From a virus, in IMG/VR virus record IMGVR_UViG_3300035042_000032: a stretch of 32,431 nucleotides of DNA. The stretch is one strand, 5' to 3'. The notes beneath the pieces were generated by a model that did not search any database, was not told the origin of the DNA, and worked only from the letters and a program-made list of their open reading frames with translations. The position numbers and the translations under genes are program-made. Shown in pieces: positions 173 through 32,431 of this stretch. Position 1 is the stretch's first letter, and every line of letters starts with the position of its first letter.

Positions 173-464
173 CTAAATCCTCCTTGATCCTCTCTATCAG
201 TTCCTTCGCTTCTATCGGGTGTGTTTTTGGATCGAGTAGAACTCTGCTGTTGCACTCCAGACTGCACACGGTAGCCAAATTCAAAGGGTGGTGTATCACG
301 TCCTTTCCGTATTGCTTCAAGTAGCTCTTGCTCTTGGGTATCCTATGTGCCAATTGTAGGTTTCCGAGGTGCAACGGTTTCCCGCACACCTCGCATCTGC
401 AACCACGCTCTACCATCAAGCGGATACGGTTCTCTTGGTAGTCCAAGCGTTCTCGTTCGGTCAA
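153..464 (-). CDS. HNH-family nuclease-like protein (103 aa)
   Basis: Motifs CRCEVCG ... LQLAHRIPKS ... IHHPLNLATVCSLECN give a Cys pair plus H-N-H spacing. TTG start overlaps the ssb stop (translational coupling). Confidence 0.65.
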   Translation of the reverse strand: MTERERLDYQENRIRLMVERGCRCEVCGKPLHLGNLQLAHRIPKSKSYLKQYGKDVIHHPLNLATVCSLECNSRVLLDPKTHPIEAKELIERIKEDLDGQTKR

Positions 465-874
465 AATGGTATCAGCTCCGAGCTATCGTCAACAAAACTC
501 TCCGGTCCACTCTGTTGCTTCGGGTATCGGTTTTCTTCCTTCGGATCGCTCTTGCCACCCATGAGTTGAAGGTGGTTCACAATGATAACGACCTTGCTCC
601 GGTTCTGACCGTCCTTCTCCCAACGCTCTTGTCGGATTTCTCCGGCGATGGAGACCTGTTGCCCTTTGGTGAGGTATTGGTTTACGCTCTGTGCCATCTT
701 GCCAAACATAACACAGTCGTAAAATCCAGCTTCATCTTCCCACTTGTCGTTTTTCTTGACGCTACGATTTGAAGCGATAGAGAATTTGCCTATAGCCATA
801 CCGCTGTTGGTGTAGCTAAGCTCTGCGTCTCGTACCAGACGCCCATTGATTGCTAATACATTCATGTCGTTCAT
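461..874 (-). CDS. ssb: Single-stranded DNA-binding protein
   Basis: OB-fold SSB sequence (MNVLAINGRLVRDAELSYTNSGMAIGKFSIASNR...GEIRQERWEKDGQNRSKV) with an acidic tail ...DDSSELIPF. Start moved to ATG 874 behind AAAGGAG. Confidence 0.92.
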   Translation of the reverse strand: MNDMNVLAINGRLVRDAELSYTNSGMAIGKFSIASNRSVKKNDKWEDEAGFYDCVMFGKMAQSVNQYLTKGQQVSIAGEIRQERWEKDGQNRSKVVIIVNHLQLMGGKSDPKEENRYPKQQSGPESFVDDSSELIPF

Positions 875-958
875 ACAATCTCCTTTACTAAGGTCAGTAA
901 CCATATGAGATAACACCTATCTCAAACTTTAAGTCGTTCATGCTTTCTCCTTTACTAA
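866..958 (-). repeat. Duplicated translation-initiation region: 866..891 and 933..958 are 22/26 identical
   Basis: Minus strand TTAGTAAAGGAGA[ttgt/aagc]ATGAACGAC occurs twice, 67 nt apart. The second copy heads ssb, the first heads a 15-codon uORF. Confidence 0.8.
894..941 (-). CDS. 15-codon upstream ORF (MNDLKFEIGVISYGY) ahead of ssb; possibly only a duplication remnant
   Basis: ATG 941 behind AAAGGAGAAAGC. It stops 20 nt before the ssb ATG. It contains the hairpin GAGATA-ggtgt-TATCTC (plus 907..923). Confidence 0.25.
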   Translation of the reverse strand: MNDLKFEIGVISYGY

Positions 959-986
959 ATTATACCACAGATATGGCATATTGCAA
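959..986 (-). promoter_or_regulatory. Sigma70-like promoter with extended -10, upstream of ssb
   Basis: Minus strand TTGCAA (986-981), 16 nt, TGgTATAAT (-10 at 964-959). Lies in the only gap between ORF 989..1471 and ssb. Confidence 0.55.
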
Positions 987-988
987 GC

Positions 989-1471
989 CTATTCTTCCAT
1001 ACCACGCAAGATTTCTTCCCACTTCCTGGAGTTGATTCCTGCAATGGTTGCTTCTCGTATCACTTCATCGATTGCGTCCTTTCTTTGCTCAACGGTAAAG
1101 TCAGCCCAGCTTTTCGGCACCTCAGCATATCTGCCTTTCACATCATCAAGGCTCTTTACATGGCGCACCTTCCCGTTTTCTATGAAGATGTATTCATCAG
1201 CTCCGGCGGCCCTCAGCTTGAAAGTGTCTCGCATATCATCATAGGATTCGTAACTTGAAAGGCCACTTTTCCAATATTCGCCAAGAAGTGCATGAAAGGC
1301 CCTGTTTTGTGCGTCACTACCGACACGTTCCGGCTCACACATCTTGATAGTTATGTATCCACCATGCTTCTTGTCGGTCTTTGAGAACAGCTCCTTTACC
1401 TTGTCCTTGTGGGATGGTGGGACTATTGCTAATCCCACCTCCTCTTGCTTAACCGTCCACGATACGGTCAT
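989..1471 (-). CDS. Hypothetical protein, tentatively NinB/Orf-like recombination mediator (160 aa)
   Basis: GGAGGA RBS and an ATGA overlap with the upstream gene. SDAQNRAFHALLGEYW resembles the lambda NinB SLDQNRKLWACLGDV motif. Sits in the recombination module. Function call is weak. Confidence 0.5.
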   Translation of the reverse strand: MTVSWTVKQEEVGLAIVPPSHKDKVKELFSKTDKKHGGYITIKMCEPERVGSDAQNRAFHALLGEYWKSGLSSYESYDDMRDTFKLRAAGADEYIFIENGKVRHVKSLDDVKGRYAEVPKSWADFTVEQRKDAIDEVIREATIAGINSRKWEEILRGMEE

Positions 1472-1767
1472 AAGTCCTCCGGATCAAAATAGATTTGTCT
1501 TAGAAACTTCAGCTTTGGTTTAAGGGTTCCCCTTGCCACCCAACTGTGTACCGTCTTGGTCTTTACCCCTTTCATCTCTGCAACCTCTTCCACAGTCAAG
1601 AGTCCTTTTGGAATTTCCATGAAGCGTTTGAGTTCTTCTTGGCTAATCTCAATTTTGTTGTTTGGGGTGCTGTAGGGTCTCGTTACCTTCAACTCTCCGC
1701 TTCGCACGTAATTGTAAATGGTTTTTTCATGGCACCCTACAATCTTTGCCGCATCTGCTACTGTCAT
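1468..1767 (-). CDS. DNA-binding protein with two excisionase/MerR-type helix-turn-helix repeats
   Basis: MTVADAAKIVGCHEKTIYNYVRSGEL... and LLTVEEVAEMKGVKTKTVHSWVARGTL... are two HTH_17-like units. Start set at ATG 1767 (GAAGGAGGAAGC, ATGA overlap). Confidence 0.7.
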   Translation of the reverse strand: MTVADAAKIVGCHEKTIYNYVRSGELKVTRPYSTPNNKIEISQEELKRFMEIPKGLLTVEEVAEMKGVKTKTVHSWVARGTLKPKLKFLRQIYFDPEDL

Positions 1768-2441
1768 GCTTCCTCCTTCATGCCAAATGGTGTTCCGTCT
1801 TCGAATTTGTAATAAGTAAAAGCGTCTATCCAACAAATTCTTTCCCCTTCAACAATGATTCCTTCATCGTAATAACCATCATGCTGAAATATCACATCCC
1901 TCATTTTTAACCACTTCTCACGATATGGCTTGAACTCTTCTGCGTTTTTGAATGGGCGGTAGGATGGTTCCTTGATGACTTCTAGCACTGTGAATGGACA
2001 CCTCCAATTTTCCACATGTACTTCGACAAGAATACAATCATAATAAATACCAGTTACTCGTCCAACTTCCCCTACAATTTTTTTCTTACCAACATTTTCT
2101 GTCTCAAAAATACAGTTTGAATCATCTTCATCTGGTGTAAAATCCCTAATTATTCGTACTTTTGTACCTATACATACCTTGTTCTTCACCACCCATTCTT
2201 TTTGACGTTCCTTGTATGTTGGTTCCGGCTCAGGGTAGAAAAGTAACTCTGCACCATATTTGTCGCTTACAAATCTAGTGGTTACATTTTCCCCACGAAT
2301 GGACAATAGTGTTATCTTTTTATCTTCTTTTCCAAAACTGTATTTCAAGTCGGATAATGTCGAGCCGATCCAGCCCTTCTGTCCGACCTTTGCCTGGTCT
2401 GCTGTTACACTGGTCAAAATCTTGTTCTTGTCAAATTCCAT
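1764..2441 (-). CDS. Hypothetical protein (225 aa)
   Basis: Long ORF, AGGAGGAAGTT RBS, no motif recognised. Confidence 0.8.
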   Translation of the reverse strand: MEFDKNKILTSVTADQAKVGQKGWIGSTLSDLKYSFGKEDKKITLLSIRGENVTTRFVSDKYGAELLFYPEPEPTYKERQKEWVVKNKVCIGTKVRIIRDFTPDEDDSNCIFETENVGKKKIVGEVGRVTGIYYDCILVEVHVENWRCPFTVLEVIKEPSYRPFKNAEEFKPYREKWLKMRDVIFQHDGYYDEGIIVEGERICWIDAFTYYKFEDGTPFGMKEEA

Positions 2442-2450
2442 AACTTCCTC

Positions 2451-3194
2451 CTAAAAATCAGCCTTAGGCTGTTCACCCTTTGCAAGTGCTACAAAGGGAT
2501 TGTTCTTCAATCTGCGGTTTTTTTGCAGATAGTACACCATTACCAAGTGATTGAAACATGCGGTCATTCTGTCAATATCGGTTTCGATGGTCTTGAAAGT
2601 AGGTTCTGCGGTTTCCTTGTCAAGGTGGAGCAAAGCGATATTTTCAAGCCTTTCTTGCCCCTCATGGAGCCCTTCATTGTATGCTTGGAGATATGCACAG
2701 AGCTGGTATTTCATTTCATCGTAGATACCCTTGCTCGTCTTAAAATCCACCAAGTACTTATGCCCATTAATCAGTGCGATTGCGTCAAAGCGTCCCGCAT
2801 ATCCGACATTATCAGAAAACACCTCGCATTCCGTTTCCAACCACTTAACATGGTTCTTCTCTTCCCAGCTCTTGAAGGCCGAGAAAGCGGTTCTTGCTTG
2901 GTCACATTGAAGGAATTGCTCTGGGTCAAGACCATTGATATACGCTTCAATGGCATGGTGTGCTTGCGTTCCGGCCGAAGCTGCATCGTCCCTTTTCTGT
3001 GCGTATGCCTTCCTTGCTTGCTCCAAAACCTGTTCCCCACGATGCACATCCAATGGGTCTTTGATCGCTTCCAAGTTATCTGCTATGAAGTCTACTGCAC
3101 AATTACTAGCCCAACCCAGCAAGGCTGGCTTGTCCAACAATCCTAGAATCGTAGTCACTGAAGGGTATTGCACCCCGTTTCTCTCGTATGCCAT
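2451..3194 (-). CDS. PD-(D/E)XK (RecB/Cas4-like) phage exonuclease
   Basis: YPSVTTILG...GTQAHHAIE...GRFDAIALINGHKYLVDFKTSKG...YQLCAYLQAY gives the D...D/E-x-K plus QxxxY layout. Start at ATG 3194 (AAAGGAGAG; TAATG overlap with the upstream gene). Confidence 0.75.
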   Translation of the reverse strand: MAYERNGVQYPSVTTILGLLDKPALLGWASNCAVDFIADNLEAIKDPLDVHRGEQVLEQARKAYAQKRDDAASAGTQAHHAIEAYINGLDPEQFLQCDQARTAFSAFKSWEEKNHVKWLETECEVFSDNVGYAGRFDAIALINGHKYLVDFKTSKGIYDEMKYQLCAYLQAYNEGLHEGQERLENIALLHLDKETAEPTFKTIETDIDRMTACFNHLVMVYYLQKNRRLKNNPFVALAKGEQPKADF

Positions 3195-3892
3195 TACTTC
3201 TCTCCTTTCATTGCGGTCATGAGGTCTTGCCATCCGGTTGTCTCGCCAATCTCTACGGTCATGGGGACGGTTCCTGTTCGGTCTTTTGAGTCAAAGTTAC
3301 CACCCTGCGTTGGGGTGTAGAGAACACGCTTGTAGTCCTCACCTTCCTTTCTGATCCCCAAGTAAGAGATAACATCAACCATGTTTGGGATTTCATCGGA
3401 GAGCTTGGTTGCTACCTGTATCCTATGTTCGATGGTTTGATCGTTCTGGATTTCACTCACATGCGACACGATAATGACATTCTTCTTGGTGTCACGCAAA
3501 AACTTGATGAAGTTCCGCATCTGCTTTTTGACCTCACCCCATCCTGCCATGGTGAGCCCACCGTCTCCGGTTCTATACTTCGGCCCTTTGATTTCTGGTG
3601 AGTCAATGAGCTTGTCCATGGCCTCGCCAAGAGGGTCAATGACAATGGTGTCGTGGTCTTGCAAGAGATTCAGCAAGTCCTTTTTGTCCCCACTGTTGAG
3701 CCAATGGTCTAATCTGACTACATCGGCACTAATCCCACGTGAACCAAGATATTTCGTACCGTTCTCGAAGTCCAAGATAAGTGGTCGTGGAGCGGTAGCC
3801 GCAAAGGTAGTCTTTCCTGTTCCACCCTTCCCATAAACCAGCATTACCAGATTGTTTTCCGGTATGATTCCGCTTGTGTTCTCTAACGTCAT
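3194..3892 (-). CDS. Sak4-like (AAA_24 / RecA-fold) ssDNA-annealing ATPase
   Basis: Walker A VYGKGGTGKTTFAA, PLILDFENG, Walker B TIVIDPLGE, NVIIVSH. Start at ATG 3892 behind GGGAGGA. Confidence 0.8.
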   Translation of the reverse strand: MTLENTSGIIPENNLVMLVYGKGGTGKTTFAATAPRPLILDFENGTKYLGSRGISADVVRLDHWLNSGDKKDLLNLLQDHDTIVIDPLGEAMDKLIDSPEIKGPKYRTGDGGLTMAGWGEVKKQMRNFIKFLRDTKKNVIIVSHVSEIQNDQTIEHRIQVATKLSDEIPNMVDVISYLGIRKEGEDYKRVLYTPTQGGNFDSKDRTGTVPMTVEIGETTGWQDLMTAMKGEK

Positions 3893-3908
3893 AATGTCCT
3901 CCCTATTC

Positions 3909-4001
3909 CTATTGCGATAACAGCCCCATATAGAGCCAAAGCCCAATGCTGGCGGTGATAATCCAACCAGCCACGAAACTAATTGATTTGATCGCTGTCA
4001 T
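3909..4001 (-). CDS. Small hydrophobic peptide (30 aa), below the ORF-track cutoff
   Basis: ATG 4001 behind AAAGGAGAG. MTAIKSISFVAGWIITASIGLWLYMGLLSQ has one predicted membrane helix and fills the 3893-4018 gap. Confidence 0.4.
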   Translation of the reverse strand: MTAIKSISFVAGWIITASIGLWLYMGLLSQ

Positions 4002-4018
4002 ATGCTCTCCTTTGATAA

Positions 4019-4222
4019 TTAATACGTATGAATATAGATTATTCTACCACCATCCTCAAATGCCTTTTCAAGCATCCCAATTTGTTTTTCCAGATGCAAT
4101 ATATACTCTTCTGGAGTATATTCAACTCTTTTTTCGCAATCAGCTTTATAGTCATTCCAGCTTATTGCCACCTTCAACAAATTACCAGATTCATCATACC
4201 AACACATTTTTGTTTTTGGCAT
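4019..4222 (-). CDS. Hypothetical protein (67 aa)
   Basis: AAAGGAGAATACGAAA RBS, compact spacing. Confidence 0.65.
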   Translation of the reverse strand: MPKTKMCWYDESGNLLKVAISWNDYKADCEKRVEYTPEEYILHLEKQIGMLEKAFEDGGRIIYIHTY

Positions 4223-4248
4223 TTTCGTATTCTCCTTTGATGTGATGC

Positions 4249-4467
4249 TTAGTCTCTGATTGCCAACAGAAAAGCTGGTTCAACACCAAACTCTCTCATG
4301 TGCTTGTTACAAGCCTCTACAATTGATCGGTTAAAATCAACATTAATGCCTTGCTCAAGATTTACTTGTGCGATTCTCGCATTGTAATGCTCTTCAGCAA
4401 ACAATCTCTTAAATTCTGCGTCCTTTCCATTGCTCTTTGGTTTAAGTCCATTTCCGCCTAACATCAT
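4249..4467 (-). CDS. Hypothetical protein (72 aa)
   Basis: AAAAGGAGATTACAACG RBS; first gene after promoter 4529-4501. Confidence 0.65.
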   Translation of the reverse strand: MMLGGNGLKPKSNGKDAEFKRLFAEEHYNARIAQVNLEQGINVDFNRSIVEACNKHMREFGVEPAFLLAIRD

Positions 4468-4500
4468 CGTTGTAATCTCCTTTTCTTTCCTTGATAATTA

Positions 4501-4529
4501 ATACTACACCCTATAGTATTATTTGTCAA
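4501..4529 (-). promoter_or_regulatory. Sigma70-like promoter (TTGACA-17-TAGTAT, GGTG just upstream of the -10)
   Basis: Minus strand TTGACA (4529-4524) aataatactatagGGTG TAGTAT (4506-4501). Intergenic and correctly oriented. Shares ACTAyAGGGTGTA with the promoter at 8418-8390. Confidence 0.6.
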
Positions 4530-4725
4530 ACCCTATTTCACAGATATATACATCTTTTTTGTCTTTTCGTTCGTGGGACATGCAAGCGATACCCAATCTC
4601 TCACAAACCCCTTGCGCTATGCAGTGATTGCAGAGGATTTGCGTAGAGGGTATAGCTGTGCTGTCCTTGATGATTCCATGCTTCCCATTTACTTTTACTT
4701 TGGTTCCTATGTCTAAATCAATCAT
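4519..4725 (-). CDS. Hypothetical Cys-containing protein (68 aa)
   Basis: AAAAAGGAGCAAACA RBS. Confidence 0.65.
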   Translation of the reverse strand: MIDLDIGTKVKVNGKHGIIKDSTAIPSTQILCNHCIAQGVCERLGIACMSHERKDKKDVYICEIGFDK

Positions 4726-4738
4726 TGTTTGCTCCTTT

Positions 4739-5578
4739 TTAGATACCTAGAATATTTTTCGTCTTGACAAAATCACTACGCCCATTCTTCAACCTGTGCT
4801 TTGTCTGTTTTACCTCGATAGGGTGACAACGCTCCAGAATCCTTGAAAAGATACGCTTGTTGGATATGTCCTCGGGATTCTTTATGTCCTCCAGTGATAA
4901 ATTCGTGGTGATAATCATCGGCAGCTTTGCGGTGTATCGTGTATCAACAACCCCATAAATAACCTCTTGCATGTAATCCGTTCTACGCTCCGTTCCCATA
5001 TCATCAATAAGCAATAAGTCATAAGTGTTGAAAGATGTGTAGAACTCCGTCTTGTCAAAGTCCGCAAATGACTTACTTGCTAGGTCTGGAAAAGAAGTGC
5101 CCTTGCACTTATAACCTTGGTCAAGAAGAGCGTTGAGAATGCAGTTGGCAAAGAAGGTCTTTCCACCGTCAACCAATCCATAGAACAACAATCCTCTACC
5201 CTCTCCTAAGAAGGTTTCGAAGTGCTCTACATACTTCTTGCAAGCGTTGCTTATTGTGGGAAGTGAGTTGTCGTCTTTTTCAAATGTGTTTTCAAGAAGT
5301 GAAACATCATTGTAGCAATTCGCCTTGTTCAGCTCTATACGCTCCACAAGCCTTTTCTTCCTATCCGCTTCCTCCTGGTTACACACTTCCTCCGCTTGAC
5401 AGTCACACATACAACCAAAGGTTTTCTCAGTCCCTAGAAATATTTTCTTGAGCTGCTTTGGTGTGTGACATTTCCCACAATACAATATATCATCTTTGAT
5501 ATAATCGCCTTCTTCCCTAGTTGCCTGCAAATTCATGAATACCTGTTCAATTGCTGATTTTGCTTTCAAAATGGACAC
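4739..5578 (-). CDS. DnaC/IstB-like AAA+ helicase loader
   Basis: Walker A GLVDGGKTFF, Walker B LLLIDDMGTE, IITTNL; N-terminal CGKCH...CMCDC. Start uncertain: GTG 5578, TTG 5569 (7 nt after GGGGAG) or ATG 5536. Confidence 0.8.
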   Translation of the reverse strand: MSILKAKSAIEQVFMNLQATREEGDYIKDDILYCGKCHTPKQLKKIFLGTEKTFGCMCDCQAEEVCNQEEADRKKRLVERIELNKANCYNDVSLLENTFEKDDNSLPTISNACKKYVEHFETFLGEGRGLLFYGLVDGGKTFFANCILNALLDQGYKCKGTSFPDLASKSFADFDKTEFYTSFNTYDLLLIDDMGTERRTDYMQEVIYGVVDTRYTAKLPMIITTNLSLEDIKNPEDISNKRIFSRILERCHPIEVKQTKHRLKNGRSDFVKTKNILGI

Positions 5579-7331: not shown

Positions 7332-7501
7332 TGTTCCTCCAAGTCTACCAGCTTCTCTGCCTGCATCATTTCCCCTCTAGAATCATAGCCCAGATTGAAG
7401 GTCAGTAGGATTTTCCCGATGTCCTTGAATACTTTGTATGATTCTAGGGTGAACCCATGAGCTGCCCTCTGTACTCTTTCGTGAATGGTATTACTCTGCA
7501 T
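7241..7501 (-). CDS. Hypothetical protein (86 aa) whose last 91 nt overlap the next gene out of frame
   Basis: ATG 7501 sits 9 nt after GAGG. The N-terminal ~55 aa look protein-like. The basic tail lies inside ORF 7080..7331. Confidence 0.45.
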   Translation of the reverse strand: MQSNTIHERVQRAAHGFTLESYKVFKDIGKILLTFNLGYDSRGEMMQAEKLVDLEEQCHTKTKRSRNLGTSGTTKPTPNATGRNRR

Positions 7502-10224: not shown

Positions 10225-10464
10225 TTACACCCCCAAAACCGTACATGCAACCACAATTCCCAGAATATCTGCAATCAAATCAGCCACACTGAGTTTGCCA
10301 TATCGCAGCTTGTCCCAAATTTCCTTTGCCACACCAAGCAAGATACCTACCGCAATCGCACCGTTTATGTCCCACTTGTCTGCCAGCGTGTACACCAAAG
10401 CGTAGGTGATGGCAAAATGTGCTACTTTGTCGATGTGCTTTACTAATAGATTCTCAATAAGCAT
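10225..10464 (-). CDS. Three-TM membrane protein, possible holin (79 aa)
   Basis: Hydrophobic segments VAHFAITYALVYTLA, GAIAVGILLGVA and LIADILGIVVACTVLGV. Confidence 0.5.
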   Translation of the reverse strand: MLIENLLVKHIDKVAHFAITYALVYTLADKWDINGAIAVGILLGVAKEIWDKLRYGKLSVADLIADILGIVVACTVLGV

Positions 10465-10474
10465 TATTAAGCGT

Positions 10475-10636
10475 TTAATAGCACCTCCGTAGTACCTCCC
10501 CGATGCCTACCGTAAGATTCCGCATCTGCTCACCAAGCGCATAGCGCTCGCTTTTCGGTAGCTGTGTCACTACACACTTGAGGATGTATTCAGCCATGTC
10601 CTCCCACTTCTGGTAAGCAATCAGTGTATTCCCCAT
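10475..10636 (-). CDS. avd: Truncated Avd-like (DGR accessory, four-helix-bundle family) stub, 53 aa
   Basis: MGNTLIAYQKWEDMAEYILKCVVTQLPKSERYALGEQMRNLTVGIGEVLRRCY fits the N-terminal Y..W......LPK.E+Y.L..Q+R pattern of Avd/23S-rRNA-IVS proteins, but those are about twice as long. GGGAGGAC lies before an internal in-frame ATG. Sits directly 3' of the VR-bearing gene. Confidence 0.5.
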   Translation of the reverse strand: MGNTLIAYQKWEDMAEYILKCVVTQLPKSERYALGEQMRNLTVGIGEVLRRCY

Positions 10637-10653
10637 ATTCCAGTCTCCAGTGT

Positions 10654-11883
10654 TCAGTTGGTCAGTGTACGATAAAAAGCGGGACGGAAACCGAAGGTGT
10701 TGTGCGAGAACGAGCGCTCGTTGTTCGCGCTGCGATACCCGAGCCCAGCGCGCGACGTGTCGTACCAGTAGCCACCGGCGCAGCCGAGCCGTTCGCCTAC
10801 ATTGCGCATGTACTGCGTTCCCAGCGGTGAGTTCGCGAGTGGAGGCATGATGCCTAGCACACGAAGAATGTCGTGAACAGTTACACCTGCTTTTGCTGCA
10901 AGAGTCGAGAATGTATTCACGCCGTATGCGCTAGTATCTGGAGCGGCATTTTCAATGGCGATATTCAGCCTGAATCCCGCCGTACCAGCTGGAGCTGGGA
11001 CACTTACATAATCCCATTTGTAGGTGTCTGTCGTTCCGGGAGCCACGAGAGACCCGTCTTGGAGGATGGCCTTCCAAAGTGTGGATACTGCGCTCTGGTC
11101 CTTGGTGTTGTCAGCTGCATCGTTGTTCTGGATTACCTGCAATTCGCCTTCATTGATGCGGTATCCTCCGTTCCATTCACGCACATTTCCTCTAAGGTCA
11201 GCAGGTGAGAAAGGAGTACCATCAAGATGCCAGCCTACTGGTCCACTACCGGTAAGGGTAGGACCTATCTTGCCATCACTATAGACATACGAGTCGCCAG
11301 CGCTTCCGAACTCAGTAGAGTCCTGATAGCTCTTGCCATAGTAGTCATTCCCTCTCGGCTGGTATCCTTCACGGATTGCCAGCAGGGAAAGATATGCCCA
11401 CTCAGCATGCGTCATTAGGTGATGACCTACGCCCTTTGCAGCACATAGAGAAAGCGCATTGTCAAATGTAGTGTAATTGGCTGGAGACAATCCCCTGAGA
11501 GATACCGCATGATTCGTACCTGCTACCTTTCCAGCAAGATATTTGCCTACAAGGATTTCAACGATGCTTCCGTTTACCATGAAAGCAGGATGCAACGTGT
11601 TCACTGATGTGAAGTGCGTTCCACCGTTGCTGAGATAATCAAGCCTTGCTTTCTCGTCTGGCTTGTACACAGTGTATACACTCGGCTTGCTGTTTGCATC
11701 GAAAATGACAGTATTCCGCCCGAGCGACAGGTCCTCGATTCGGGCCTTGTAGTCCGCCTGTTTGGTTGCATCGGTGATGGCGAGAGCGGTTCCTGCAAGG
11801 GCTTCCTTGGTGAGTGCTTCCTCTACCTCAATAATATTGTCTAAAATCTGTTTGGATGTGTATTGTCCGCTTACGTATGTCAT
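10654..11883 (-). CDS. Tail-fibre/receptor-binding protein with FGE-sulfatase (C-type-lectin) fold; DGR variable-protein type
   Basis: HLMTHAEWAYLSL...PADLRGNVREWNGGY are FGE/CLec hallmarks. C-terminus ...GGYWYDTSRAGLGYRSANNERSFSHNTFGFRPAFYRTLTN. Last gene of the tail-fibre block. Confidence 0.75.
   Translation of the reverse strand: MTYVSGQYTSKQILDNIIEVEEALTKEALAGTALAITDATKQADYKARIEDLSLGRNTVIFDANSKPSVYTVYKPDEKARLDYLSNGGTHFTSVNTLHPAFMVNGSIVEILVGKYLAGKVAGTNHAVSLRGLSPANYTTFDNALSLCAAKGVGHHLMTHAEWAYLSLLAIREGYQPRGNDYYGKSYQDSTEFGSAGDSYVYSDGKIGPTLTGSGPVGWHLDGTPFSPADLRGNVREWNGGYRINEGELQVIQNNDAADNTKDQSAVSTLWKAILQDGSLVAPGTTDTYKWDYVSVPAPAGTAGFRLNIAIENAAPDTSAYGVNTFSTLAAKAGVTVHDILRVLGIMPPLANSPLGTQYMRNVGERLGCAGGYWYDTSRAGLGYRSANNERSFSHNTFGFRPAFYRTLTN
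10681..10790 (-). other. Variable-region (VR)-like segment of the DGR-type target gene
   Basis: GC-rich island (about 10675-10850), unlike anything else in the window. It encodes the GGxW...N/x-rich...GFRPA terminal loop typical of DGR VRs and retains AAC codons (AACAAC, CACAAC). Confidence 0.55.
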
Positions 11884-12101
11884 ACGATTCCCTCCATATG
11901 GTCATGTTCCTCAACTACTGGAAGAGGGAACAATTCTGCGTGATTCTCTCGGAAATCCCTCGCAAGGGTGGGGACGTAGGCGATCGCCTGCTCCTCCGTT
12001 CCAATTACCGTGTTGCTGGCGCCCTGTTGCACCCCTTCATCCATGAATGAGACGGATACCAGCCATTTGTTGGCCTCGATGTTTGTTATGGTGTGTGTCA
12101 T
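11880..12101 (-). CDS. Hypothetical tail-fibre-associated protein (73 aa)
   Basis: ATGA overlaps on both sides within the fibre block. Confidence 0.65.
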   Translation of the reverse strand: MTHTITNIEANKWLVSVSFMDEGVQQGASNTVIGTEEQAIAYVPTLARDFRENHAELFPLPVVEEHDHMEGIV

Positions 12102-12445
12102 AATTCGATTACCTCCACCTTTACTTCTGCCCCTGTTGCGATTGCATAAACGTCCTGTACGTTGTTCGGATCAAGCAACACCTTGACCGTTTTCTTCGGG
12201 TCTAGAAGGAACCCGATTTTCTCGGTGATTGAAGTAGAGCCGATTCTCACGGTTCGTACCTCATCGAGATTGGTGACGACCATGACCCTGCGTCCGACCT
12301 TTGCGGATGAGGGTACCTTGGCCTTGGTTGATGTGACGGTCTGGATGGTCACCACAGGAGCACTCGTCATATCGAGTGTATCCGGGGAAACGTCCACCAT
12401 CTGTTGCATCTGGATGCCGTTGGGCAACAAAATATCTATAGCCAT
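12098..12445 (-). CDS. Hypothetical structural protein (115 aa)
   Basis: Tightly coupled ORF in the tail operon. Confidence 0.65.
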   Translation of the reverse strand: MAIDILLPNGIQMQQMVDVSPDTLDMTSAPVVTIQTVTSTKAKVPSSAKVGRRVMVVTNLDEVRTVRIGSTSITEKIGFLLDPKKTVKVLLDPNNVQDVYAIATGAEVKVEVIEL

Positions 12446-12823
12446 TTAGACTACCTCCGTATATGTGGTCACTAGATGACCGTTCTCAATTTTTCTGCTT
12501 ACCATGTATGTAATCCCCTCGTAGGTGAGGGTGTCCAAGCCTGTGAGACGTTCATCAATCGGCTCCACCGCATCCTTGACACTCTTGGCTACTGAGCCTT
12601 CGGTTTCGGAGTCAGCTTCCAAGGTATCAAGTCTTGTCTCATGGTCAGCAAGCGTGCCCTCTGCGTCAGTAATTCCAAGGGTTGCTTTTGCGTTGGTCTT
12701 GGTTATCGGTTTGATTTTCTGTTCCGACACATCTTCCATGACAAAAACATCATCATCTTCTAGGGCTGTTGCGTACTCCCTCTGTGACGGTCGTTTAATA
12801 TCAGCATCTGTAAGTGTTGCCAT
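12446..12823 (-). CDS. Hypothetical fibre-like protein (125 aa)
   Basis: Acidic, coiled-looking repeats (LADHETRLDTLEADSETEG...DERLTGLDTL). TAATG overlap with the upstream gene. Confidence 0.65.
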   Translation of the reverse strand: MATLTDADIKRPSQREYATALEDDDVFVMEDVSEQKIKPITKTNAKATLGITDAEGTLADHETRLDTLEADSETEGSVAKSVKDAVEPIDERLTGLDTLTYEGITYMVSRKIENGHLVTTYTEVV

Positions 12824-20023: not shown

Positions 20024-20031
20024 GTTCTCTC

Positions 20032-20847
20032 CTATGCTATAAACAGCTTCATCAGCCGATAGCCTTCGTCTGGGTCTGGTTCTGCGGTGAACCCTACAGT
20101 AAGCTCATTAACCCCGTCCTCATTGATTCCCTTGAAGTTGAAAGCAGCTCCACTGTCCAATGTTGCATTGTAGAGGGTGAATTGCCATTCAATGGAATTG
20201 AACGCTGTTACCGATACTCCCGAAGCATTGACCTTTGCGTCTGCGAGGTCAACATAGGTTCCGCTTGCCACGATCAAATACAAGTTGGTTGCATCGGTGT
20301 AAAAGTGTCCCTGCGCACCTACCGTATTTGCATCACTGACATGTACCTCGTGCATTCCTGCAATATTAACATATCCGTCAATCTCGGTTGTCCATGGAAG
20401 TGAAGTGGTAAACACCGTCTTGGGGATGGTGACAAAATCATTGATTGTGTCAGTATTCAAAGCGGTAATATCGTCCTCTACTATGACATGGCTATCCTGT
20501 CCATCAAAGTGCGTCAATCGGTATGATGCGCTTCTAAGGTCAGTGACATGATTGGGTGTGTTGACCAAATCACCTGCTGACATTTCTGTTACGCCACCCA
20601 AGATTTTATCAAAGATGGATAAATCCCAATTCCAGATTGCAGACGGCGAGAGTTGGAAGGAGAAGTTCTTGATTTTTTTGATCACTTCCTTGTAATTCCC
20701 ACCGTCCAGAATCATTACATCCCAGTTGAGTGTGCCTGTCGCCCCGCCAGCGACAAGACCCACATCTTCGAATCCGTCCCCGATATTCACAGCTAACTGA
20801 AAACCATCGGGAAATATGTATTGTTTGCTAGCGGTTTGTCTAGGCAT
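20032..20847 (-). CDS. Major-tail-protein paralogue with ~90-aa internal insertion (271 aa)
   Basis: N-terminus (MPRQTASKQYIFPDGFQL..ATGTLNWD..GNYKEVIKKIKNF..WNWD) and C-terminus (WQFTLYNATLDSGAAFNFKGINEDGVNELTVGFTAEPDPDEGYRLMKLFIA) align with ORF 20856..21410. Confidence 0.7.
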   Translation of the reverse strand: MPRQTASKQYIFPDGFQLAVNIGDGFEDVGLVAGGATGTLNWDVMILDGGNYKEVIKKIKNFSFQLSPSAIWNWDLSIFDKILGGVTEMSAGDLVNTPNHVTDLRSASYRLTHFDGQDSHVIVEDDITALNTDTINDFVTIPKTVFTTSLPWTTEIDGYVNIAGMHEVHVSDANTVGAQGHFYTDATNLYLIVASGTYVDLADAKVNASGVSVTAFNSIEWQFTLYNATLDSGAAFNFKGINEDGVNELTVGFTAEPDPDEGYRLMKLFIA

Positions 20848-20855
20848 ATATCCTC

Positions 20856-21410
20856 CTAAGCCTTGAAGAGCTTCATGAGCTTGAAACCATCTGCTGGGTC
20901 GGGTCGTCCGGTGAAAGATACGGTGATTTCATCAAGTCCATCTTCATTCACACCCTTGAAGTTGAATGATGCCCCTGCGTCCATGTTGGCATTGAACAGG
21001 GTAAACTGCCAGTCAACCGTGGTCAAGGAAGCATCACTGTAGTGAGTCATTCTCACTTGGACGTCGGAGAGGTCAACGACATGGTCGGCTCCTGCAAAGT
21101 CCAAATCATCACCAGCGGAAGGGGTGCTTGCGATGGTCTTGGTGAGAATCCCATCAAACACCTTCACGATGGTTGCAGGGTCCCAGTTCCACAAGGCCGA
21201 TGGCGCAAGGGCACAAGTGAAGTTCTTTGCTTTCTTGATAAGGTCTTTGTAGTTGCCTGCATCAAGCCTAATCTCGTCCCAGTTAAGGGTTGCTGTAGCA
21301 CCTGCTGCTACAATACCGATGTCAGTCCACGTGACCCCATTGTCTGTTGATACTTCCAACTGGAAGCCGTCTGGAAACTGATAATTCGCTTGGTCTGTCT
21401 GTCTAGGCAT
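20856..21410 (-). CDS. Major tail protein (184 aa)
   Basis: Position after the tail-completion genes and before the chaperone; size; paralogous to the next gene. Confidence 0.7.
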   Translation of the reverse strand: MPRQTDQANYQFPDGFQLEVSTDNGVTWTDIGIVAAGATATLNWDEIRLDAGNYKDLIKKAKNFTCALAPSALWNWDPATIVKVFDGILTKTIASTPSAGDDLDFAGADHVVDLSDVQVRMTHYSDASLTTVDWQFTLFNANMDAGASFNFKGVNEDGLDEITVSFTGRPDPADGFKLMKLFKA

Positions 21411-32149: not shown

Positions 32150-32431
32150 TTAACCCTCCCATTCATCGGGCAGGGTGAGGGAGTCCTTCCAGTCGCCGGA
32201 GTAATCTAATTCAATAGGAAGGAAACTAAAACGACCCTCAGTCGACATCCAGTATCCTGCTTCTTCAGCAAGCACTGGTTCTTTGACATATACCCACCAT
32301 AGTTTATCTTGGTCTTGTGCTACAATAAGCCCAAGAACATTAGCCACCTCTTTGGGTTTTTTCATCCCACCACTCATCAGCCTATCATAGGCTTCGGCTT
32401 TTTCTTTGAGGGCAGAGATTTCATCACACTG
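32150..32431 (-). CDS. Hypothetical protein, 3' part of the origin-spanning gene (see 1..172)
   Basis: The frame of ORF 32150..32377 stays open to the window end. The true ATG is at 172 of the repeated copy. Confidence 0.6.
   Translation of the reverse strand, partial: QCDEISALKEKAEAYDRLMSGGMKKPKEVANVLGLIVAQDQDKLWWVYVKEPVLAEEAGYWMSTEGRFSFLPIELDYSGDWKDSLTLPDEWEG
32305..32431. repeat. Terminal direct repeat (copy 2), identical to 1..127
   Basis: 127/127 identity read directly. Confidence 0.95.

Follow-up and report, generated by a model that had tools for sequence, protein, structure and literature searches.

The diversity-generating retroelement (DGR) of Bordetella phage BPP-1 (mtd-avd-TR-brt) comprises a tail-fibre variable protein with a C-terminal variable repeat (VR), the accessory variability determinant (avd), a template repeat (TR) and a reverse transcriptase (RT), which is also the ancestral order of the locus described here. 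The BPP-1 variable protein, Mtd, has the same C-type-lectin fold as our target and was found by fold search, but the two proteins share about 10% sequence identity and their global superposition is poor (TM 0.29). The closest solved structure is that of TaqVP from Thermus aquaticus (PDB 5VF4), which is 33-34% identical over nearly the full length. TaqVP belongs to a chromosomal bacterial DGR in which both TR and RT are present, whereas our target lies in a phage tail module from which both are missing. Homologous targets (31-38% identity over 85-98% of the length) were also found in the DGR phages VHML and VP585 (Vibrio), FP_Lagaffe (Faecalibacterium), Saumur (Clostridium) and Bise (Pseudomonas), and in Bise, FP_Lagaffe and Saumur the annotation places an Avd/four-helix-bundle gene and an RT right after the target. 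All of these phages are distant, and those examined contain complete cassettes. A DGR phage without its core has been engineered: BPP-1 deleted for avd-TR-brt (delta-ATR) takes homing from a donor plasmid (PMC3240598). The present locus is a natural counterpart, with a natural deletion that keeps 46 avd codons in a siphovirus-like 32-kb phage. A published DGR detection pipeline begins with a candidate RT; therefore, RT-less loci would escape it. No description of naturally RT-less DGR remnants was found in the literature searched.

The window, that is, the whole stretch of 32,431 nucleotides analyzed here (IMG/VR virus record IMGVR_UViG_3300035042_000032), carries a 127-bp terminal direct repeat and thus represents a closed circle of 32,304 bp. 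It contains a degenerate form of a known DGR system (Table 1). This locus is very probably a DGR remnant whose VR was written from a TR of the type found in the intact relative L004 (IMG/VR contig 3300042257_000076), whose core was deleted from avd codon 46 onwards, and whose module was then recombined into its present background. An earlier note, made from the DNA sequence alone, had read the locus as a decayed DGR, and this reading was borne out by the target, the avd stub, the absence of TR and RT, and the intact cassettes of relatives.

Table 1. Features of the DGR remnant and its surroundings (positions in the window)
Feature	Position	Strand	Basis or remark
DGR variable (target) protein gene, 409 aa	10654..11883	-	ORF, PHROG 2889 and 5VF4 fold match
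VR, 110 nt, encodes ...GCAGGYWYDTSRAGLGYRSANNERSFSHNTFGFRPA	10678..10787	-	match to L004 TR
GC-rich island, 67.5% GC, coincides with VR	10679..10798		GC scan
avd remnant, codons 1-46	10499..10636	-	identity to L004 avd
Seven non-Avd codons (EVLRRCY) and stop	10475..10498	-	sequence; overlaps next gene's ribosome-binding region
Truncation junction (allele A), ...GGCATCGG / GGAGGTACTACGGAGGTG...	10499..10500		end of homology to intact relatives
DGR-phage-type fibre module, 2.06 kb, in non-DGR backbone	10500..12558	-	96.0% identity to L004 positions 2986-5040
73-aa gene travelling with target	11880..12101	-	91% aa identity to L004, L005, L006
115-aa gene travelling with target	12098..12445	-	94-100% aa identity to L004, L005, L006, L011
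Chimeric 125-aa fibre/adaptor gene	12446..12823	-	holds module's left boundary, about 12554-12558
79-aa membrane protein gene, first after junction	10225..10464	-	weak VanZ / DUF2279 / YfiM-like

The target gene, its strand and coordinates, and the peptide strings quoted from it in the earlier note were all confirmed. PHROG 2889 matches the protein over residues 12-406 (E 3e-92), i.e., in full length, and a profile hmmsearch against the PDB matched 5VF4 (E 9e-100; query profile positions 40-398). With an AlphaFold model of the target (pLDDT 90.9), Foldseek returned TaqVP first (5VF4; E 1e-40, TM 0.80-0.88), followed by Mtd (1YU0) and TvpA (2Y3C); EgtB and PvdO were weak matches. No Pfam family was detected for the target at E <= 1. 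This includes FGE-sulfatase (PF03781), the family that the note had proposed to search, although homologues of the target at 43-47% identity do contain PF03781. The 409-aa protein is thus a TaqVP/Mtd-type DGR variable protein with the C-type-lectin fold that the note had proposed, and is presumed to be a tail protein for receptor binding.

The VR lies at the C-terminal end of this C-type-lectin/FGE-like fold (about residues 366-402), as expected for variable proteins with this fold. Of its 110 nt, 97 agree with the L004 TR (locus positions 5277-5386), and all 13 mismatches fall on TR adenines, of which there are 28 (hypergeometric P = 1.4e-9). In intact relatives the TR follows the VR at a distance of 415 nt, and the two repeats likewise differ in an adenine-specific manner. 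The GC island that the earlier note had seen at the end of the target gene is genuine and coincides with the VR; scans over 120, 170 and 200 nt all place the highest GC content of the window here, against a window mean of 45.3% (sd 5.7%). [quoted passage not shown] Unlike BPP-1, the locus has no GC-rich hairpin after the VR; no stable hairpin was predicted there (-3.7 kcal/mol, worse than shuffled sequences). The number of non-adenine mismatches was considered as a decay clock and dropped: intact relatives also have 0-2 internal non-adenine mismatches, and for the phages truncated at avd codon 40 (see below) no cognate TR is available.

The 53-aa ORF next to the target (10475..10636), described in the earlier note as an Avd stub that stops 10 nt ahead of the next ORF (which starts at 10464), begins with a genuine Avd sequence; its coordinates, on the minus strand, and the peptide strings quoted from it were confirmed as well. 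Its residues 1-46 are identical (46/46) to the Avd proteins of L004, L005, L006, L008 and L011, and the L004 gene, which encodes a 121-aa Avd, starts with the same nucleotides (137 of 137). Weak matches were found in independent profile libraries, all at the N-terminal end of the profile only: Pfam bAvd PF22296 (E 8e-6, positions 1-38 of 107), Pfam 23S_rRNA_IVP (E 1e-4), PHROG 3206 "Avd protein of DGR" (E 2e-5) and NCBIfam DivGenRetAVD (E 1.5e-5, positions 2-42 of 104). Scores were below the curated cut-offs of PF22296, PF05635 and NF033474 (26.7 vs 40, 22.8 vs 33.8 and 25.3 vs 80 bits, respectively), so that the assignment as an Avd N-terminus is based on the 100% identity to full-length relatives. 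The Avd proteins of these relatives match PF05635 and PF22296, and that of L004 matches DivGenRetAVD over positions 2-104 of 104. Compared with a full-length Avd (a four-helix bundle of about 105-125 aa), only residues 1-46 of the stub are Avd-derived. The remaining codons and the stop overlap a GGAGGT...GGAGGTG ribosome-binding region of the next gene; intact relatives have the 3' end of the RT at this place.

Further examination of the closed genome revealed neither an RT nor a TR/VR pair, in agreement with the earlier note. An adenine-tolerant scan of both strands detected no TR (the best non-self match had at least 12 non-adenine mismatches per 60 nt), and no second copy of the VR was found with or without adenine tolerance. 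Searching the window by tblastn with four DGR RTs gave a best E of 0.08, and an HMM built from 12 DGR RTs gave a best E of 2.6 against its six-frame translation, the positive control (L008) being recovered at 1.8e-184.

In contrast, an intact target-avd-TR-RT cassette occupies the same place in L004 (96% nt identity) and in seven other relatives (L005, L006, L008, L011, L031, L032 and L033), a comparison that the note had also suggested. These cassettes encode an Avd of 119-121 aa and an RT of 355-411 aa, followed by a membrane-protein gene whose start is overlapped by the RT 3' end; the stretch removed in the window (avd 3' half, TR and RT) corresponds to about 1.5-1.6 kb. The window shares with these phages the 115-aa and 73-aa genes, the target and the Avd N-terminus (96% nt identity to L004 over 2,062 nt), and its VR conforms to their TR, whereas their upstream structural genes differ and L031 and L033 contain a polyvalent protein of 2,600-2,900 aa. 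Every relative examined, whether its cassette is intact or truncated, has the 73-aa gene upstream of the target, and the 115-aa gene weakly matches PHROG 8501, a minor tail protein (E 0.005). No near DNA relative was found among GenBank phages, the only match being 139 nt of Pseudomonas phage Bise. The sole host clue comes from L033, which is a prophage end in a Sphaerochaeta sp. MAG; a search of genome contigs with the target protein gave two remote matches in alphaproteobacterial MAGs (27-30% identity), which are useless for host assignment. Pfam searches with ten further ORFs of the window (structural, lysis-region and other unassigned genes) returned nothing useful and no integrase.

Besides the truncation seen in the window, three other avd truncations were detected among the relatives. 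In L034-L039 avd is cut at codon 40 and fused to the last nine codons of the membrane-protein gene; in L043 and L044 it is cut at codon 75, where a 6-nt microhomology links it in frame with the final 14 RT codons, so that about 1.47 kb has been cleanly deleted in situ; and in L049 it is cut at about codon 80. Counting all alleles, the DGR core was lost on at least four occasions within a single phage clade. All four alleles keep at least 40 avd codons and the native ribosome-binding site, a regularity that is subject to ascertainment bias because the alleles were found via the Avd N-terminus.

At the truncation junction of the window (allele A), homology to seven intact relatives (L004, L005, L006, L008, L011, L032 and L033) ends at position 10500, and avd codon 46, which continues as TGTACATATTGC in intact genes, continues as GGAGGTACTACGG. 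The same junction was found in L007, in L040-L042 and in the Logan assemblies L021 and L022, which are 100% identical to the window over 10.4 and 6.9 kb, respectively; allele A is thus present on three genomic backgrounds (window, L007 and L040). The stubs measure 53, 51 and 58 aa, as their tails vary by carrier; over the truncated alleles the C-terminal tails are EVLRRCY, EVLRR, EVLRRYYETIHH and PIAFLIVGV. Between the window and L007, the 46 avd codons show 12 synonymous differences, with no amino-acid change among the carriers. Up to the junction, L007 and intact L008 are 99.7% identical (7,387 nt), and all but one of their 24 differences lie in the VR. L007 was nevertheless rejected as a simple deletion derivative of L008, as there is no match downstream of the junction.

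It is unlikely, in our view, that this junction arose several times at a hotspot rather than once, with subsequent spread. The three carriers have three avd 5' haplotypes, each matching its own intact relative up to a point at most 29 nt from the junction; therefore, a single origin needs gene conversion that extends as far as the heterology border, or else the junction arose more than once. Moreover, deletions in this interval recur, with four distinct left breakpoints, and L040 has only about 17-22 nt to the right of the junction in common with the other carriers. However, the first 17 nt on the right-hand side (GGAGGTACTACGGAGGT) are identical in all three carriers, and no parent of this sequence was found in any intact relative examined, RT 3' ends included. 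With up to 3 mismatches allowed, an 18-nt right flank returned only carriers among all fetched loci, and the exact junction with its right flank was found in the L007 contig only in IMG/VR and in none of the JGI metagenome contigs. The window and L007 also have a specific variant in common for about 80 nt past the 17 nt, and no known right-hand parent could be shown to share microhomology with the region of avd codons 44-46. Gene conversion up to the heterology border is the simpler account. An RT ending in ...GAGGTACTACGGAGGTGA would mark the parental right end of the deletion.

The surroundings of the module suggest that the deletion did not take place in this genome. On both sides (14658-12554 and 10479-7076) the sequence is 88-92% identical to that of L023, L024 and L025, where a 557-aa fibre and a 123-aa ORF stand in place of the module, which comprises the fibre C-terminus, the 115-aa and 73-aa genes, the target and the avd stub. 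As the closest relatives of the backbone, L023 and L025, carry a different fibre, the module was probably recombined in. Its left boundary lies within the 125-aa gene, whose residues 1-98 are 83-87% identical to the N-terminus of the L023/L025 557-aa fibre and whose residues 80-124 are 73% identical to the C-terminal end of the L004 fibre (373 aa); backbone homology stops at 12554 and L004 homology starts at 12558, with the crossover at a TTGATAC microhomology. On the right, the 79-aa gene (Pfam VanZ, weak, E 0.002) is a positional and weak (27% identity) homologue of the 83-aa gene after the RT in L004. It is itself a mosaic, L007-like in its first ~80 nt, L024/L025-like in the middle and 100% L023-like in the last third, and the window has ATT in place of the ancestral ATG. 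A simple in-situ deletion in the window genome was rejected, since both flanks of the module are of another backbone type. Thus, the loss of the avd 3' half, TR and RT that the earlier note had proposed holds, but its probable site was another genome.

The most economical reading is that a DGR phage suffered the deletion and that the truncated module then spread by recombination. The VR would have been written by adenine-mutagenic retrohoming from a TR of the L004 type. A deletion, most probably in a DGR-carrying phage, would then have removed the avd 3' half, TR and RT and joined avd codon 46 to roughly 20 nt containing the ribosome-binding site of the next gene. Later, the truncated module was probably recombined into the 32.3-kb backbone, by an in-frame microhomology junction within the fibre gene at the left end and by homologous exchange within the membrane-protein gene at the right end.

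Because the genome has neither TR nor RT, self-driven rewriting of the receptor-binding site would no longer take place. The three consensus assemblies of this phage all have the same VR, which suggests that the VR is a frozen snapshot, barring ordinary mutation, recombination with DGR-proficient relatives, or a helper DGR. We consider it quite unlikely that, as in the alternative offered by the earlier note, a co-infecting or resident relative that shares the TR and the target-recognition sequences still diversifies the VR in trans with its own avd-TR-RT. The identity to L004 of the VR 3' end, stop codon and flank indicates that the recipient elements adjacent to the VR are unchanged, and BPP-1 without avd-TR-brt is still homing-competent from a donor plasmid (PMC3240598). 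The IMG series 33000422xx contains intact L004, L005, L010 and L011 beside carriers of the junction (L040-L042) and relatives of the backbone (L024-L026). Two RT-less carriers, L040 and L042, differ at one TR-AAC codon only, and the VRs of the RT-less codon-40 contigs are very different, mostly at TR-adenine sites. Nevertheless, the unchanged VR in the three assemblies speaks against ongoing renewal. In addition, the difference between L040 and L042 lies at the 5' end of the VR only, and their other adenine sites are shared. Retrohoming starts at the 3' end and would re-randomise those sites too. The differences among carrier VRs are equally well accounted for by import of VRs through recombination, which is rampant here.

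For the clade as a whole, RT-less phages might conceivably be long-lived "free-riders" whose homing-competent VR is renewed by DGR-proficient relatives, an idea that we also regard as unlikely. Such renewal could be direct, by trans retrohoming in co-infection or in a lysogen, or indirect, by recombinational import of fresh VRs. Three side observations may be regarded as hints: the old junction occurs on three backgrounds with a different VR on each, adenine-site differences are saturated among the VRs of the codon-40 carriers, and L040 and L042, otherwise identical, show a single adenine-codon difference.

The 53-aa ORF would be a by-product of the deletion, non-functional as Avd. That it is a selected small protein, e.g., an Avd fragment that interferes with the DGR of competitors, is very improbable. 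The retention of at least 40 avd codons and the native ribosome-binding site in all four alleles, and the 46 codons free of amino-acid change among carriers against 12 synonymous differences between the window and L007, are what such selection might leave. However, the former is affected by the ascertainment bias mentioned above, and intact avd genes have the very same synonymous variants, which points to selection on full-length Avd. Moreover, the C-terminal tails differ among alleles, and the 46 residues cover a small part of both four-helix-bundle models. Finally, a chimeric assembly is hardly credible as the source of the junction: although the region is a mosaic shared with co-occurring phages, a setting where assemblers build chimeras, the identical junction and flanks occur in assemblies that are independent of one another and were made by different pipelines (two Logan runs, one IMG/VR contig, three JGI samples), and the contig closes on itself.

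These results indicate that a phage can keep a DGR-written receptor-binding gene and yet discard the mutagenesis machinery, and that one loss allele persists on several genomic backgrounds. A VR-like C-terminus together with an Avd stub is a usable signature for former DGR targets. The locus also raises testable questions about the cost or dispensability of the DGR core, and about whether receptor specificity in such phages is frozen or refreshed by relatives.

Both the target ORF and the ORF of the avd stub lie on the minus strand where the earlier note had placed them, and the motifs and C-terminal sequence that it quoted are found in them. Pfam gave no match for the 409-aa target protein itself; PHROG 2889 matches it over the full length (E 3e-92), and its homologues number in the hundreds, with PF03781 present in those at about 45% identity. 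By tblastn, homologues of 31-38% identity were identified in the DGR-bearing phages VHML, VP585, FP_Lagaffe, Saumur, and Bise, and in the last three, genes annotated as Avd/four-helix bundle and as reverse transcriptase (RT) come after the target homologue. Comparison of a 32-homologue profile with solved structures resulted in one strong match, 5VF4 (E 9e-100), which the fold search describes as the Thermus aquaticus DGR variable protein TaqVP and which is also cited in a paper about the crystal form of that structure. The AlphaFold model of the target protein (pLDDT 90.9) superposes on 5VF4 with TM scores of 0.80-0.88, and BPP-1 Mtd and Treponema TvpA rank next in the fold search. Because of this sequence and fold match, the matches to Mtd and TvpA, and the homologues in DGR phages, the target is a C-type-lectin-fold DGR variable protein, as had been proposed.

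The proposal that the 53-aa ORF is an Avd stub also holds. Its N-terminal part alone matches the profiles bAvd, 23S_rRNA_IVP, PHROG 'Avd protein of DGR', and NCBIfam DivGenRetAVD, all weakly (E 1e-4 to 8e-6, every score under the curated cut-off). Decisive sequence evidence for an Avd N-terminus comes from the IMG/VR relative L004, in which a target protein 97% identical to that of the window is followed by a 121-aa Avd, a template repeat (TR), and a 411-aa RT. The stub is identical to this Avd over its first 46 residues, and to the L004 avd gene over its first 137 nt; beyond ...GGCATCGG the two sequences are fully unlike. Blastn homology to seven relatives with an intact target-avd-TR-RT order (L004, L005, L006, L008, L011, L032, and L033) stops at window position 10500 in every case, and the next ORF after the stub begins 10 nt on, at 10464.

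The GC-rich island reported near the end of the target gene is real: 10679-10798 reaches 67.5% GC (window average 45.3%), and no other part of the window is as rich in GC at any of three window sizes. The TRs of the intact relatives align with window 10675-10787. Between the variable repeat (VR) of the window and the TR of L004, which codes for the usual AAC-rich GYAGGNWNNTSN... stretch, there are 13 mismatches, all of them on the 28 TR adenines (hypergeometric P = 1.4e-9). The intact relatives have their own TRs 415 nt downstream of the VR, and their VR/TR mismatches are likewise adenine-specific. An adenine-tolerant scan detected no TR in the window, and tblastn found no RT there, nor did a DGR-RT profile HMM run against every six-frame fragment (the positive control worked), in agreement with the initial reading. 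The ancestral element is a canonical target-avd-TR-RT phage DGR. The window locus, which retains the features of a DGR variable protein and lacks those of a functional DGR (RT and TR absent, Avd truncated), is a DGR remnant.

Features of the window and avd loss alleles of the phage clade
Feature	Window position	Strand	Length	Description	Basis or carriers
Target ORF	10654..11883	minus	409 aa		
Avd stub ORF	10475..10636	minus	53 aa		
VR	10678-10787		110 nt		comparison with L004 TR
Chimeric fibre gene	12446-12823		125 aa	crossover about 12554-12558, in frame, TTGATAC microhomology	
Membrane-protein gene	10225-10464		79 aa	mosaic of at least three relatives, 50-100-nt scale	
Recombination set	461-3946			Sak4-like annealing protein, exonuclease, SSB, NinB/Orf-like mediator	PHROG
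Structural genes				terminase, portal, major head protein, tape measure	PHROG
Replication/nucleic-acid genes				replication initiator, DnaC-like loader, HNH endonuclease	PHROG
Allele A				avd codon 46 to about 20 nt that contain the ribosome-binding site of the next gene	window, L021, L022, L007, L040-L042
Allele B				avd codon 40 to last 9 codons of membrane-protein gene	L034-L039
Allele C				avd codon 75 to last 14 RT codons, in frame, 6-nt microhomology	L043, L044
Allele D				avd codon about 80 to a right end no more than 5 nt from that of allele B	L049

The junction at which avd breaks off is neither an assembly artefact nor unique to the window. Two other runs, SRR11801449 and SRR11802023, gave Logan assemblies that agree with the window at 100% identity for 10.4 and 6.9 kb, VR and junction included, and the same junction is present in IMG/VR contig L007 (stub of 51 aa) and in three JGI samples (L040-L042, stub of 58 aa). 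L007 and the intact L008 share 99.7% identity over 7,387 nt, ending exactly at the junction, with 23 of their 24 differences inside the VR; downstream of it they do not match. Three carriers (window, L007, and L040) have three avd 5' haplotypes, one each, and every one of them is identical or nearly so to a different intact partner (window/L004, L007/L008, and L040/L006) until 29 nt before the junction. To the right of it, L040 has just about 17-22 nt in common with the other two. Either a single old allele has had its identical-by-descent tract worn down by conversion as far as the heterology border, or the junction event recurred.

Further truncated Avd alleles were collected from the 90%-identity cluster of the stub. 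The truncations at codons 40, 75, and about 80 are independent of that in the window and belong to the same phage clade; alleles A-D therefore represent repeated loss of the DGR core in this clade. The 49-aa stub of allele B is on record in 10 contigs. Allele C results from a clean loss of about 1.47 kb in situ, which leaves an in-frame Avd-RT fusion; the gene after it is the same 83-aa one that follows the RT in L004. All four alleles have their right-hand breakpoints close together, shortly before the point where translation of the next gene starts; in intact relatives this start overlaps the RT stop codon. We read this clustering as survivorship.

The surroundings of the remnant are mosaic. 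The nearest relatives of its flanks (14658-12554 and 10479-7076, 88-92% identity) are L023 (a 32.6-kb contig), L024, and L025, which hold a 557-aa fibre and a 123-aa ORF, and no DGR target, at the position of 2.06 kb of the window. Window 12558-10500 is instead 96% identical to L004. In the chimeric fibre gene, the N-terminal ~89 residues resemble the 557-aa backbone fibre of L023/L025 and the C-terminal ~35 the 373-aa fibre of L004; the in-frame joint at TTGATAC suggests that the product is probably an adaptor between the imported receptor-binding module and the resident baseplate. The membrane-protein gene is L007-like for about 80 nt, then L024/L025-like, and 100% L023-like in its last third, which points to very frequent recombination there. 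At 10464-10473, its ancestral ATG (ATGAAACGC in L007, L025, and L026) is ATT, a substitution that also gives the stub its TAA stop; the listed ORF starts at an internal ATG at 10464 without an obvious Shine-Dalgarno sequence, so a start at ATT behind a strong GGAGGTG is possible. A single sample, IMG 3300042269, contains both parental types (L005 and L025), and the window phage itself encodes Sak4, exonuclease, and SSB recombination genes. The decayed-DGR interpretation is supported by these results and can be refined to deletion plus recombinational transfer: the DGR core would have been deleted in a DGR phage, and the module, already truncated, would then have recombined into the present backbone.

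VRs also differ among relatives that have no RT. L040 and L042 show no difference in about 1,130 nt of flanking sequence, and L040 differs from L041/L042 in one TR-AAC codon near the VR 5' end (VR positions 17-18, TAC vs GGC). The VRs of the codon-40 carriers L034-L039 differ at 15-25 sites, mostly adenine sites, and their flanks differ far less. These differences fit both import of VRs by recombination from DGR-proficient relatives and diversification in trans. The latter could work in principle, since BPP-1 devoid of avd-TR-brt still undergoes homing from a donor plasmid (PMC3240598), but we consider it unlikely: a change limited to the VR 5' end is unlike a retrohoming event, and the VR of the window phage is the same in three assemblies.

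The window has a 127-bp perfect direct repeat at its termini (1-127 = 32305-32431); because this repeat is the overlap of a circular assembly, the genome is a closed circle of 32,304 bp. PHROG matches identify it as a complete tailed-phage genome. No ORF of integrase size exists among the unassigned window ORFs, whereas a Phage_integrase gene is present in the intact relative L032. In the tail region, the minus-strand neighbours 20032..20847 and 20856..21410 have similar 3' parts (20029-20192 vs 20853-21016, 164 nt at 70% identity) and an apparent common C-terminal domain, as if tandem paralogues; the former has no match in PHROG or Pfam. Both independent Logan contigs of the window phage end at 7454, beside an imperfect inverted repeat (7377-7404 / 7420-7447, 71% complementary); the site may mark strain variation or a branch of the assembly graph. 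In the intact relatives L031 (1-2925) and L033 (1-5880), the fibre genes are closely preceded by a gene for a 2,600-2,900-aa polyvalent protein with an ART-PolyVal domain. L033 is a prophage end beside host genes (PPDK and short-chain dehydrogenase) in a Sphaerochaeta sp. MAG, the sole host clue for the clade.

In a limited search, the available text of PMC5758913, PMC8144416, PMC6199706, PMC8008677, and PMC12135933 contained no description of RT-less remnants or recurrent loss alleles; a DGR detection pipeline outlined in this literature begins with a candidate RT. The window locus is a natural analogue of the laboratory phage BPP-1 delta-ATR. This kind of system is well known, and the window provides a clean, well-documented degenerate case of it with a modest evolutionary twist.
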